Below are positions 3,089-5,615 of a stretch of 11,692 nt of DNA, piece by piece. The translations under genes and the position numbers were made by a program. The DNA lies in UHGV virus genome UHGV-0121323; one strand, given 5' to 3'. Numbering within the stretch: position 1 is the stretch's first letter; each line of letters begins with the position of its first letter. This DNA comes from a virus. The notes under the pieces were generated by a model. That model had not been told where the DNA came from. It did no database searches and saw only the letters and a program-made list of their open reading frames with translations.

Positions 3089-3796
3089 TTACCAACTATG
3101 AGACGACCAGAATACTCTGCCAATAATCCTTACGGTTTCATGAAATTCATCTCTATCCATTACTTCATCCGGGTACTCTTCGCGATTTATTGATCTGATT
3201 ATCACCGATGTAGGGGTGGCGATTAATGTTTTTACTCGTAACAAATCAGACTGGCAAATAGCGTAGGTTTTACCATCTCTGATTGTGGTATCTTGCGTGT
3301 TAACACCAACAACATCGCCATCGTGAAGGGTTGGTTCCATGCTTTGCCCTACAACCCTAACTAGCTTGGCTGATCTTTCAGATACTCCCATCTTTTTCAG
3401 ATAGTGCTTTCTGAAAACCAAAGAGAACTCCGATGATTCCTCTAGCTCGCAGCTACCGCTTCCAGCTGAAAGCGAAACGTTAAGAAGAGGCAACGCAACA
3501 AACTCGTCATCGTTTCTTTTAATGTCTTCCCATACCACAGCTTTTAAAGATGACTCACGGACATTGGATGGTTCTTCATGTGCACCATCCCTCATTTCAC
3601 CAATACCAGAACTAAGCCATTCAGGACGCACTTTTAAAGCATTGGCTAATTCAACCATCTTGCGAGATCCGTTTGTTTTACCGGACGACATCTTCTGTAT
3701 GGCTGGCTGAGATATTCCAACCATGTCAGCAAGCTGTGATTGTGATACCCCTGCTGAGCTCATGGCTGCATTTAGTCTTTCTGCGAATGTTTTCAT
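3089..3796 (-). CDS. cI: CI-type prophage repressor (N-terminal HTH, C-terminal LexA/S24-like autocleavage domain)
   Basis: Translation from the ATG at 3796: MKTFAERLNAAMSSAGVSQSQLADMVGISQPAIQKMSSGK... (HTH), with a C-terminal region containing GQSMEPTLHDGDVV (Ser nucleophile context) and a downstream Lys (LLRVKTLI). Divergent from the cro gene across an operator cluster. The track start at 3826 is a TTG inside the operators and is rejected. Confidence 0.85.
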   Translation of the reverse strand: MKTFAERLNAAMSSAGVSQSQLADMVGISQPAIQKMSSGKTNGSRKMVELANALKVRPEWLSSGIGEMRDGAHEEPSNVRESSLKAVVWEDIKRNDDEFVALPLLNVSLSAGSGSCELEESSEFSLVFRKHYLKKMGVSERSAKLVRVVGQSMEPTLHDGDVVGVNTQDTTIRDGKTYAICQSDLLRVKTLIATPTSVIIRSINREEYPDEVMDRDEFHETVRIIGRVFWSSHSW

Positions 3797-3808
3797 ACCC
3801 ACAAATCT

Positions 3809-3871
3809 ATAACTACGGTTATCCAAAGTAAAATAACAAAGGTTATTGCTATTTTTTATAACTTGAGTTAT
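3809..3871. promoter_or_regulatory. OR operators: three 14-bp sites ATAAC-N4-GTTAT
   Basis: ATAACTACGGTTAT (3809..3822), ATAACAAAGGTTAT (3833..3846), ATAACTTGAGTTAT (3858..3871); centre-to-centre spacing 24 and 25 bp, between the divergent cI and cro genes. An abutting inverted pair GTTATAAC sits at 3878..3885. Confidence 0.6.
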
Positions 3872-3874: not shown

Positions 3875-3907
3875 TGGTTATAACTAATGACCACAAGAGG
3901 TATGCTC

Positions 3908-4132
3908 ATGAATTTAGTAATTCAACGAGCCTTGAAAATTGTCGGTAGCCAAAAGCGCCTTGCCGACAAGTGTGGTGTAACGCAGCCAGCAGTACACAAA
4001 TGGCTGAAAGGCGGGTTGGTCTCTCCAGAGAAAGTTACCGCCATCGTTAACGCCACTGGAGGGCAGATCAAGGCTTACGAAATTCGCCCCGATTTGCCAC
4101 ACCTGTTTCCAAAACCGAATCAGGCAGCATAA
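3908..4132 (+). CDS. cro: Cro-like small HTH repressor (74 aa)
   Basis: AAGAGG (3895..3900) lies 7 nt upstream of the ATG at 3908; translation MNLVIQRALKIVGSQKRLADKCGVTQPAVHKWLKGG... carries an HTH; first rightward gene after OR/pR. The track start at 3887 has no RBS. Confidence 0.75.
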   Translation: MNLVIQRALKIVGSQKRLADKCGVTQPAVHKWLKGGLVSPEKVTAIVNATGGQIKAYEIRPDLPHLFPKPNQAA

Positions 4133-4139
4133 ATAACCC

Positions 4140-4171
4140 CGCTCTTACACATCCCAGCCCTGAAAAAGGGC
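4140..4171 (+). promoter_or_regulatory. nutR (boxA CGCTCTTA plus boxB GCCCTGAAAAAGGGC)
   Basis: CGCTCTTACACATCCCAGCCCTGAAAAAGGGC; boxA 4140..4147 and boxB hairpin 4157..4171, followed by a tR1/cII-leader-like segment that matches lambda as I remember it. Confidence 0.8.
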
Positions 4172-4250
4172 ATCAAATTAAACCACACCTATGGTGTATG
4201 CATTTATTTGCATACATTCAATCAATTGTTATCTAAGGAAATACTTACAT

Positions 4251-4544
4251 ATGGTTCGTGCAAACAAACGCAACGAGGCTCTACGAATCGAGAGTGCGTT
4301 GCTTAACAAAATCGCAATGCTTGGAACTGAGAAGACAGCGGAAGCTGTGGGAGTTGATAAGTCGCAGATCAGCAGGTGGAAGAGGGACTGGATTCCAAAG
4401 TTCTCAATGCTGCTTGCTGTTCTTGAATGGGGCGTCGTTGACGACGATATGGCTCGATTGGCACGACAAGTTGCTTCGATTCTCACCAATAAAAAACGCC
4501 CGGCGGCAACCGAGCGTTCTGAACAAATCCAGATGGAATTCTGA
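4251..4544 (+). CDS. cII: Transcriptional activator CII (lambda-type)
   Basis: Translation MVRANKRNEALRIESALLNKIAMLGTEKTAEAVGVDKSQISRWKRDWIPKFSMLLAVLEWGVVDDDMARLARQVASILTNKKRPAATERSEQIQMEF is lambda CII essentially residue for residue from memory. The track start at 4191 is an upstream extension into the leader. Confidence 0.92.
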   Translation: MVRANKRNEALRIESALLNKIAMLGTEKTAEAVGVDKSQISRWKRDWIPKFSMLLAVLEWGVVDDDMARLARQVASILTNKKRPAATERSEQIQMEF

Positions 4545-4570
4545 GGTCATTACTGGATCAATCCACAGGA
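4490..4570 (-). ncRNA. OOP-like antisense RNA region overlapping the 3' end of cII (boundaries approximate)
   Basis: The cII 3' end and downstream sequence match the lambda arrangement from memory: on the minus strand a CATAAT -10-like hexamer (revcomp of 4574..4579), then the hairpin/T-run GCCGCCGGGCGTTTTTTATTGG (revcomp of about 4483..4506). The -35 region is not lambda-like, so expression is uncertain. Confidence 0.4.
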
Positions 4571-4576
4571 GTCATT

Positions 4577-4738
4577 ATGACAAAACGTCGTAAGAAATAC
4601 CAGGAAAAAGAAGAGATTCGACACCCTGATTCACCTGAGGGATTAGTGGTAGCCGCAGCAAATAACAGGGCGTTCGCAGAGCGCCTTGTTGGTGTTTACA
4701 GACTAGCCAAAGCAGGAGTGAAACATGGGCGTCGTTAA
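4577..4738 (+). CDS. Small basic ORF (53 aa) using the lambda O-type start site; possible chimeric junction ORF
   Basis: AGGAG (4567..4571) lies 5 nt before the ATG at 4577; the start context CAGGAGTCATTATGACAAA is the lambda O initiation region from memory, after which the sequence diverges. Translation MTKRRKKYQEKEEIRHPDSPEGLVVAAANNRAFAERLVGVYRLAKAGVKHGRR; the stop at 4736..4738 overlaps the start of the next gene. Confidence 0.4.
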   Translation: MTKRRKKYQEKEEIRHPDSPEGLVVAAANNRAFAERLVGVYRLAKAGVKHGRR

Positions 4739-5615
4739 GTTAGCTGATTACAGGCATAACCCTGTACAACATCAGGAGGCATCCAGTATGGGGTATGTCT
4801 CTATACACCGCCAGTTTATGGACAGCAGGCTCTATAAGGACTCTCAGGCAGTACATCTTTGGCTTCACTTAATCCTCAAGGCTAATCACGAATCTACTGT
4901 CGTCAATACGGATATCGGGCCGATAACTGTTGATCGCGGTCAGATGATAACTGGACGCCCGTCGCTGGTCAGAGAAACATTCATCCCCGACAACAAAGTT
5001 CGGAGCTTATTACGGACTTTTGAGTCGAAAGGGATGCTTAATATTTGCTCGATGGGGAAGAAATTTAGCCTGTTTACAATCGTTAAATATGACGATTTTC
5101 AGGCAAAAAATTGTCCAACGGTTGTCCAACGGTTGTCCAACGCAAACACCAGTAATGGCGCGGCTCTCAGCGGAGATTGTCCAACGGTTGTCCAACGGTT
5201 GTCCATAAACAATAATATAAATAATATCTCTAATACTGACGTATTAGAGAGTACCGCAGCAGACAAAAAGTCTGACAAGAAAAAACCTTCCGTTAGCTGT
5301 CAGGATGTTGTCGATGCTTACCACGAAATCCTTCCTGAAGCGCCAAAAATCCGCGCACTGAATGACAAGCGTAAAAACCAGATCCGAACGTTCTGGCGCA
5401 AAGCCGGAGTGATAACCCGCCAGCTTGACGGGCATGGGTTCACGATGCAGGACTGGAGAAATTATTTGAGCTACGTAGGCGAAAATTGCCGATGGATGTT
5501 CGAAGAGCGCCAAAACCATCAACGCGGAACCGTCTGGCACAAAAAGGGATTTGATTTCCTGCTTAACGATAATACCTACCTGAAAGTTCGTGAGGGTGAA
5601 CACGATGACCGATAA
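4725..5615 (+). CDS. Replication initiator (O-like) with origin iterons inside the gene
   Basis: AGGAG 6 nt upstream of the ATG at 4725; 296 aa; the middle of the gene contains the iteron array, which encodes the repeated peptide CPTVVQRLS; the stop overlaps the start of the helicase gene. Position and architecture match lambdoid O / P22 gene 18-type initiators. Confidence 0.8.
   Translation: MGVVKLADYRHNPVQHQEASSMGYVSIHRQFMDSRLYKDSQAVHLWLHLILKANHESTVVNTDIGPITVDRGQMITGRPSLVRETFIPDNKVRSLLRTFESKGMLNICSMGKKFSLFTIVKYDDFQAKNCPTVVQRLSNANTSNGAALSGDCPTVVQRLSINNNINNISNTDVLESTAADKKSDKKKPSVSCQDVVDAYHEILPEAPKIRALNDKRKNQIRTFWRKAGVITRQLDGHGFTMQDWRNYLSYVGENCRWMFEERQNHQRGTVWHKKGFDFLLNDNTYLKVREGEHDDR
5111..5209. 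repeat. ori iterons: two blocks of three direct 11-bp repeats TTGTCCAACGG followed by an AT-rich tract
   Basis: TTGTCCAACGG at 5111, 5122, 5133 (third copy ends in C) and at 5177, 5188, 5199 (last copy degenerate TTGTCCATAAA), then ATAAACAATAATATAAATAATATCTCTAATA (about 5205..5235). Confidence 0.8.

Follow-up and report, generated by a model that had tools for sequence, protein, structure and literature searches.

A lambdoid boundary sequence and a conserved 53-residue gene between a lambda-type cII segment and a DnaB-type replication module

We analyzed a stretch of 11,692 nucleotides (the window, 11.7 kb) from the virus genome UHGV-0121323. The window belongs to a mosaic lambdoid phage or prophage, of which it forms the early-right region. 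Within it, similarity to phage lambda ends abruptly inside an open reading frame (ORF) of 53 amino acids (aa) that stands between cII and the gene for the replication initiator. A previous reading of the sequence alone had suggested that this 53-aa ORF is a chimeric fusion, perhaps only a by-product, left behind by the joining of a foreign replication module to lambda DNA at the start codon of gene O. Our analysis indicates instead that the junction is, very probably, an ordinary lambdoid mosaic joint, located at a recombination-prone boundary sequence that is conserved for its functions, and that the ORF codes for a protein and evolves under purifying selection. Neither the junction nor the 53-aa ORF is new, as they are annotated in Sf6, HK97, HK022, ST104 and many other records.

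The boundary sequence at the junction

To locate the edge of the lambda similarity, the window was compared with lambda (NC_001416) in an ungapped register, in which the ATG of O was set on window position 4577. Between 4133 and 4584, 443 of 452 positions match (98.0%), including 31 of the 33 positions from 4552 to 4584. Past 4584, the match over the next 40, 100 and 200 bases is 25%, 28% and 29.5%, which is the random level, and the best local nucleotide alignment between the rest of the 53-aa ORF gene and lambda O has a score of just 11. The alignment places the breakpoint right after ATGACAAA, 8 nucleotides (nt) inside the 53-aa ORF. These 8 nt, which are part of the extended -10 region of the promoter pO, are all that lambda O shares with the ORF. 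This agrees with the earlier description of the region from nutR through cII to the O ribosome site and start as lambda-like, with identity lost within a few codons.

The last 33 bp of the lambda-like run correspond to an element that is annotated in another phage. The GenBank record of Sf6 (AF547987) labels the homologous 33 bp, spanning -25 to +8 around the ATG of gene 42, as "bsq5; boundary sequence", and labels the ORF that follows, gene 42, as "HK97 53 protein homolog". Sf6 positions 27827-27859 align with window positions 4552-4584, with 31 of 33 bases identical. Gene 41 of Sf6, upstream of this element, is of the P22-c1 type and has diverged from the lambda cII of the window, whereas from ACTGGATCAATCCAC onward the two are identical through the replication genes. 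The Sf6 gp42 protein is 100% identical to that of the 53-aa ORF, and it is followed by the initiator (gene 43), the origin repeats and a DnaB-type helicase (gene 44), as in the window. The upstream difference between Sf6 and the window is the kind of reassortment that the boundary concept describes.

With no more than 2-3 mismatches, the same 33-mer is present in lambda, Sf6, ST160 and the window. The gene on its left is lambda cII or of the P22 c1 type, and the gene on its right is O in lambda, the 53-aa ORF in Sf6, the HK-type phages and the window, and an unrelated 48-aa ORF of the Pfam family DUF2740 in ST160. Near-identical 33-mers were found at 84 of 99 loci. The element is thus a short conserved stretch at a gene boundary with unrelated flanks, in the position of bsq5, and belongs to the class of lambdoid boundary sequences. 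The junction is a recurrent exchange point that has already been described, in the boundary sequences annotated by the authors of the HK620 and Sf6 work. The sequence-only reading had proposed a module exchange at the O start codon; it was right about the position, which is that of the annotated Sf6 bsq5, but the exchange is not particular to this phage. Homologous exchange at short conserved boundary sequences is one of the models of phage mosaicism summarized in PMC3233612.

Signals are found on both strands of these 33 bp. The plus strand contains the Shine-Dalgarno (SD) sequence and the ATG of the first gene of the replication module, with SD and spacing as in lambda O. ATTATGACA becomes TGTCATAAT when read on the minus strand, and this contains a CATAAT hexamer preceded by TG. 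We read this as the -10 element of pO in an extended -10 form; no statement on an extended -10 form of pO was found in the literature. According to PMC3985674, the pO promoter of lambda is situated at the 5′ end of O, a mutation that inactivates its -10 is 2 bp away from the start codon of O, and replication from ori-lambda needs an active pO to be efficient. The position of that mutation agrees with CATAAT as the pO -10 hexamer.

The oop-like antisense RNA on the same strand differs from lambda oop at positions 4538, 4560 and 4564. Its 5′ end would lie at about 4566, as judged by register with lambda oop (38675-38599), and its terminator consists of a hairpin and a T-run at 4520-4493 on the minus strand. 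The region therefore contains the sequence elements of an oop/pO antisense unit, namely a leftward sigma-70 -10 element at the start of a replication gene and a Rho-independent terminator in the 3′ end of cII. Lambda has this same terminator, and there too CATAAT overlies the start codon of the first replication gene. Phage HK633, which is 99% identical in the oop stretch, carries the annotation 'similar to lambda oop'. A search of positions 4400-4800 against Rfam returned no family for oop or for anything else.

Similar signals are found more widely. We scanned 18 loci, including lambda, ST160 and prophages of Serratia, Rahnella, Brenneria and Chimaeribacter. A -10-like hexamer (CATAAT with TG, TATAAT, TAGAAT or TAAAAT) lies over or beside the start codon at 17 of the 18, and 16 of these also have a strong terminator 46-70 nt downstream. 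Several loci that contain both hexamer and terminator have upstream genes unrelated to cII. These elements account for the position of the joint: lambda identity reaches no farther than ATGACAAA because this is the limit of the pO -10/TG element, and the exchange point lies exactly at the ATG because the surrounding bases double as the ribosome site of the plus strand and, on the minus strand, as the pO -10 and oop start. The 33 bp carry the first bases of the oop-like RNA and the pO -10/extended -10 on the minus strand and the SD and ATG on the plus strand. In the mechanism that we propose, as these signals are kept in many lambdoid phages, homologous recombination inside them could join any nutR-cII-oop segment to any replication module, and the lambda allele would be the nutR-cII-oop segment that was joined here.

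A second edge is seen on the left of the lambda-type segment, at about 4125-4132. It falls within the last codons and the stop codon of a non-lambda cro, with CAGCATAA common to both sequences, and is a second junction at a gene end, the mirror of that at 4584.

The 53-aa gene and its cassette

The protein encoded by the 53-aa ORF is basic, with 14 K/R residues to 6 D/E, and matches the profile phrog_1331 (1.4e-37) with residues 1-53 along the 53-position profile. HK97 gp53, HK022 gp53, Sf6 gp42, ST104 orf27 and Stx2 phage 1717 gp23 are members of the same family of conserved hypothetical small proteins. The position of this family is likewise between a cII-like gene and the initiator, and nothing substantive differs from the window. 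The ORF is present in 97 phage records and in at least 466 IMG/VR contigs. Homologues were found in 17 species-representative genomes, whose names cover at least 12 genera of Enterobacterales, including Edwardsiella, Trabulsiella, Yokenella, Enterobacter, Citrobacter, Chimaeribacter, Serratia, Rahnella and Brenneria.

The pattern of substitution is that of a gene whose protein is maintained. Across 23 distinct nucleotide versions, the ratio of nonsynonymous to synonymous change (dN/dS) is 0.15 for codons 5-43, with a pooled synonymous proportion (pS) of 0.605 and a nonsynonymous proportion (pN) of 0.161. Insertions and deletions in the family are in frame, the ORF frame is open at every locus while the other five frames mostly contain stops, and residues L23, A27, F33, A34 and R36 are invariant. 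The N-termini of the homologues vary (MTK, MPK, MRK, MAK, MSK, MQK), as does the DNA upstream of them. Thus, the 53-aa ORF is not derived from lambda O. An AlphaFold2 model of the protein (predicted local distance difference test score, pLDDT, 70) has a disordered basic N-terminal stretch of 20 residues followed by helices at 21-29 and 31-49.

The RAFAER codons of the ORF contain a small plus-strand hairpin, GGGCGUUCGCAGAGCGCC, at 4668-4686. One of its pairs flips between G-C and C-G among homologues, through an Ala-to-Pro change together with a synonymous change of an Arg codon. This switch is probably a single event in one clade.

The order 53-aa ORF, overlapping initiator, DnaB-type helicase is constant in the 99 loci wherever the locus is complete, and the flanking sequences assort independently. 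The genes upstream of the ORF fall into 16 alleles (85% identity), 5 protein families unrelated to cII being among these. On the downstream side, the initiators have one of two unrelated N-terminal classes: a lambda-O-type with the Pfam domain Phage_rep_O (50 loci), and the type of the window, Sf6 and P22 gp18 (47 loci). A C-terminal domain, different from that of lambda O, is common to 91 of the 97 initiators. Copies of the 53-aa ORF that are 100% identical occur with three cII alleles and, in roughly equal numbers, with both initiator classes. We also considered whether the ORF co-varies with helicase subtype or initiator class, and rejected this, as identical copies precede both classes and their different helicases.

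A comparison of the window with a locus that has a lambda-O-type initiator (L003) showed identity from the boundary sequence through the ORF and 31 nt farther, after which the two diverge. The 53-aa ORF and the first 10 initiator codons thus make up a cassette of about 205 bp (4552-4755), which is portable and bounded by an exchange point at each end. Of 5,426 complete E. coli genomes, 1,237 contain it (204 bp, 4552 to 4755). It has been noted that the initiators of epsilon34 and ES18 match lambda gpO only from residue 17 (PMC2629481), a remark that agrees with a cassette of this kind.

In P22-type phages, a different gene has the same location. The P22-type orf48, or ST160 Orf28 (Pfam DUF2740; locus L101, 1292-1438), is 48 aa long, occupies the same slot next to the same boundary sequence and overlaps the start of gp18, by 8 nt as compared with 14 nt for the 53-aa ORF. 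Homology between the two small ORFs was considered and rejected, given an hhalign probability of 0.05%; the 53-aa ORF has no Pfam match, to DUF2740 or otherwise. Two non-homologous small genes therefore take one position ahead of DnaB-type replication modules.

The TAA of the 53-aa ORF (4736-4738) lies 9 nt past the initiator ATG (4725), which gives an overlap of 14 nt. Overlap with the initiator start is kept in 17 of 17 divergent loci, at 14 nt in 15 of them and at 17 nt in the other 2, and a GGAG or GGGG at the position of the initiator SD is kept in nearly all. This is the geometry of a translationally coupled pair of overlapping genes, and it is conserved; it makes it plausible that the initiator is coupled to the 53-aa ORF by termination and reinitiation. 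Such coupling had been suggested before, and the overlap kept in all 17 divergent loci is compatible with it. We also considered a programmed frameshift from the ORF into the initiator, which is in the +1 frame, and set it aside, as there is no slippery motif and the initiator has an SD and ATG of its own.

The replication module and other elements of the window

The features discussed here are collected in Table 1. Downstream of the helicase, the plus strand continues with nin-region genes, a Q-like gene and lysis genes. At most 45% of the window is covered by any one GenBank phage; positions 4138-5700 are 99% identical to phage HK633.

Table 1 Features of the window, with positions numbered from its first base
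Feature	Position	Strand	Remarks
cI-like repressor	3089-3826	-	
cro, non-lambda	3887-4132	+	
Lambda-type segment: nutR boxB (4157-4171), tR1, cII, oop, pO, O-type SD/ATG	4125-4584	+	
cII, lambda allele	4251-4544	+	Pfam Phage_CII 1.7e-48; 288/294 nt identical to lambda cII
oop-like antisense RNA	4490-4566	-	74/77 nt identical to lambda oop; overlaps cII 3′ end
Boundary sequence ACTGGATCAATCCACAGGAGTCATTATGACAAA, equivalent of Sf6 bsq5	4552-4584		33 bp; Sf6 record annotation, alignments, ST160 sequence
SD AGGAG for 53-aa ORF	4567-4571	+	Same SD and spacing as lambda O
Putative pO -10 hexamer CATAAT with upstream TG (TGtCATAAT, extended -10 form)	4574-4582	-	Complement of ATTATG, including the ORF start codon
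53-aa ORF	4577-4738	+	
Initiator SD AGGAG	4714-4718	+	Inside conserved KAGVK codons of the 53-aa ORF, 6 nt before ATG 4725
Replication initiator with internal iterons	4725-5615	+	
First 31 nt of initiator (MGVVKLADYR), right part of cassette	4725-4755	+	Window and L003 the same up to ...GATTACAGGC
Origin iterons, two sets of about three TTGTCCAACGG copies	5111-5205		2.9 copies at 5111-5142; 2.6 at 5177-5205
DnaB-family replicative helicase, P22 gp12 type	5605-7041	+	Pfam, phrog_19, Sf6 annotation

The initiator of the window matches phrog_345 over its full length (3.5e-85), a family that is typified by Sf6 gp43, HK022 gp54 and P22 gp18. Its N-terminal domain clusters with that of ST160 gp18, and from 4786 on the gene is 86% identical in DNA to gp18 of the P22-like ST160. 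Phage_rep_O (PF04492) was not matched in the window initiator, whereas the L003 initiator and lambda O do match it, and a blastp comparison of the window initiator with lambda O found no similarity (E 4.1). The helicase contains the Pfam domains DnaB (PF00772, 5e-31) and DnaB_C (PF03796, 3e-60) and matches phrog_19 (1.3e-134). Its reading frame is open from a GTG at 5590; the ATG at 5605, which corresponds to the start of Sf6 gene 44, overlaps the end of the initiator by 11 nt. The two sets of TTGTCCAACGG repeats inside the initiator gene are followed by an AT-rich tract at about 5206-5235, and the Sf6 record marks the stretch homologous to the iterons as rep_origin. The earlier statements that the replication module is not that of lambda, having a different initiator and a DnaB-family helicase, and that the iterons are unlike the lambda type were both borne out.

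The layout resembles the lambda O-P module in that cII is followed by an origin-binding initiator with internal iterons and then by a helicase-related function, with the same ribosome site at the head. It differs in that the initiator lacks Phage_rep_O, the iterons are others, a DnaB-family helicase takes the place of the loader P, and an extra small gene precedes the initiator.

A second in-frame ATG of the initiator, at 4788, has a perfect SD (AGGAGG, 4774-4779). It is kept in initiators of the Sf6/HK022 type and absent from P22-type gp18. A shorter initiator isoform that begins there, without MGVVKLADYR, would be possible. ATG 4788 as the sole initiator start was rejected, since both classes keep the decapeptide and since P22-type gp18 lacks a Met at this position. 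Lambda O carries the ClpX degron N-motif-1 (PMC12723719). As a speculation, V-V-K-L of MGVVKLADYR resembles the T-A-K-I core of that motif.

Two further elements were observed away from the junction. Downstream of the Q-like gene, two terminator-like hairpins flank a structured element of about 120 nt (10509-10628, plus strand). This element is composed of a closing stem, GUGGUG/CACCAC, and three hairpins, with the core hairpin at 10540-10586. Its middle hairpin matches a piece of the Rfam model for small subunit (SSU) rRNA (E 7e-8) and looks like a 16S helix, the pairing being preserved. A copy that is 91% identical is located in a gap between baseplate and tail-fibre genes in the myophage ZCEC13, which is unrelated, and in Klebsiella phage SBP. 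Lambdoid relatives match the window only up to 10539. The element may be a mobile small-RNA element. On the minus strand, positions 1244-1352 gave a weak RsmY-like match in Rfam (23.6 bits as compared with a gathering score of 57, E 0.022). At its end the match has a strong terminator hairpin, CCCGCUCCGGCGGG and then U5; it is probably due to chance, driven by the terminator.

Competing explanations and biological meaning

That the 53-aa ORF is a chimeric by-product with accidental coding capacity, left where a foreign module was joined at the O start codon, would fit its use of the lambda O ribosome site and of the first 8 nt of O, and the end of lambda homology inside it. However, the identical ORF stands behind P22-c1-type and other cII alleles and its homologues stand behind genes unrelated to cII. 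It is spread over 97 phage records, with the cassette in 1,237 E. coli genomes, and its homologues begin MPK, MRK, MAK or MQK behind different upstream DNA. A dN/dS of 0.15 and in-frame indels also speak against accidental coding, and the ORF had already been annotated as HK97 gp53 and Sf6 gp42. It is a conserved, independent gene in unrelated backgrounds, which is what the sequence-only reading had itself named as its refutation; an origin of the family in a single lambda-junction event is excluded by its distribution and divergence, and we give the by-product explanation practically no credence.

The ORF could also matter only as a translated leader, in which case the transit of ribosomes and their termination on the initiator start would count and the peptide would have no function of its own. 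The universally kept overlap, the initiator SD inside the ORF, the predicted disorder of the 20 N-terminal residues and the presence of an unrelated 48-aa DUF2740 ORF, with its 8-nt overlap, in the same slot of P22-like phages are all consistent with this. Yet the low dN/dS is measured at codons 5-43, away from the overlap and against near-saturated synonymous change, five residues of this part are invariant, and the initiator has a strong SD of its own with no conserved structure to occlude it, so that we consider a leader without a functional peptide to be unlikely. A third explanation is that 4577-4738 is conserved as DNA or RNA rather than as protein, as sequences upstream of pO, a replication signal or a structured RNA. 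The -35 and upstream sequences of pO must indeed fall in the first 40 nt or so of the ORF, and the hairpin at 4668-4686 has one covarying pair. Against this, synonymous sites vary freely (pS 0.6), the frame is open at every locus while the other five mostly contain stops, and the covarying pair is limited to one clade and may reflect a single event. This explanation appears very improbable.

Several observations weigh against our preferred reading, that of a mosaic joint at a functionally conserved boundary followed by a functional small gene. Junctions at gene starts can also arise by illegitimate recombination that is then filtered by selection, a rival model of mosaicism also covered in PMC3233612, and a conserved boundary is no proof of homologous exchange. 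The -35 of pO in the window is poor (CTGGTA, 3 of 6 positions, at 18-bp spacing). The lambda -35, TTGAGT, lies inside the O codons that are replaced in the window; the strength of pO in the window may therefore differ from that in lambda, and its function would rest on the TG of the extended -10. A good SD (AGGAG, 6-nt spacing) precedes the initiator itself, and the only conserved structure seen with RNAalifold was the small hairpin in the RAFAER codons with its one covarying pair, with nothing conserved over the initiator SD or ATG. Given this SD and the lack of a masking structure, coupling may add little and may only modulate initiator translation. Finally, the 53-aa protein has no homologue of characterized function: a Pfam search gave no match, a sequence-profile search of the PDB gave nothing at E up to 1, a fold search of BFVD with the AlphaFold2 model gave no match, and a hidden Markov model (HMM) search of 1.84 billion representative proteins gave only 24 members of the family itself. 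Likewise, no function for gp53, orf48 or gene 42 was found in the literature.

With these points considered, a mosaic joint at the boundary sequence remains the most probable explanation. The cassette heads modules in which an origin-binding initiator is combined with a DnaB-type helicase; the origin-binding domain of this initiator is either of the lambda-O type or of the gp18/Sf6 type. The 53-aa ORF would be translated from a lambda-O-type ribosome site, which is functional in lambda, and ribosomes that end its translation would be delivered to the initiator start. The constraint at the amino acid level argues that the 53-aa peptide itself also acts, and its constant association with a DnaB-type helicase, taken together with its independence from origin specificity, suggests a generic role in the expression or timing of the replication module. 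More specifically, and in our view rather doubtfully, the protein could be a trans-acting accessory factor of lambdoid modules of the DnaB-helicase type, with a part in helicase recruitment or in the timing of initiation relative to cII/oop, and would together with MGVVKLADYR form a portable expression-and-turnover cassette for unrelated origin-binding proteins.

As a discovery, the junction has little weight; it is a clean textbook case of lambdoid mosaicism. About a quarter of complete E. coli genomes contain the cassette of this very common small gene, which always heads phage replication modules of the DnaB type. It is of modest further value that the gene travels with initiator codons 1-10 as one unit, with recombination on either side of it.

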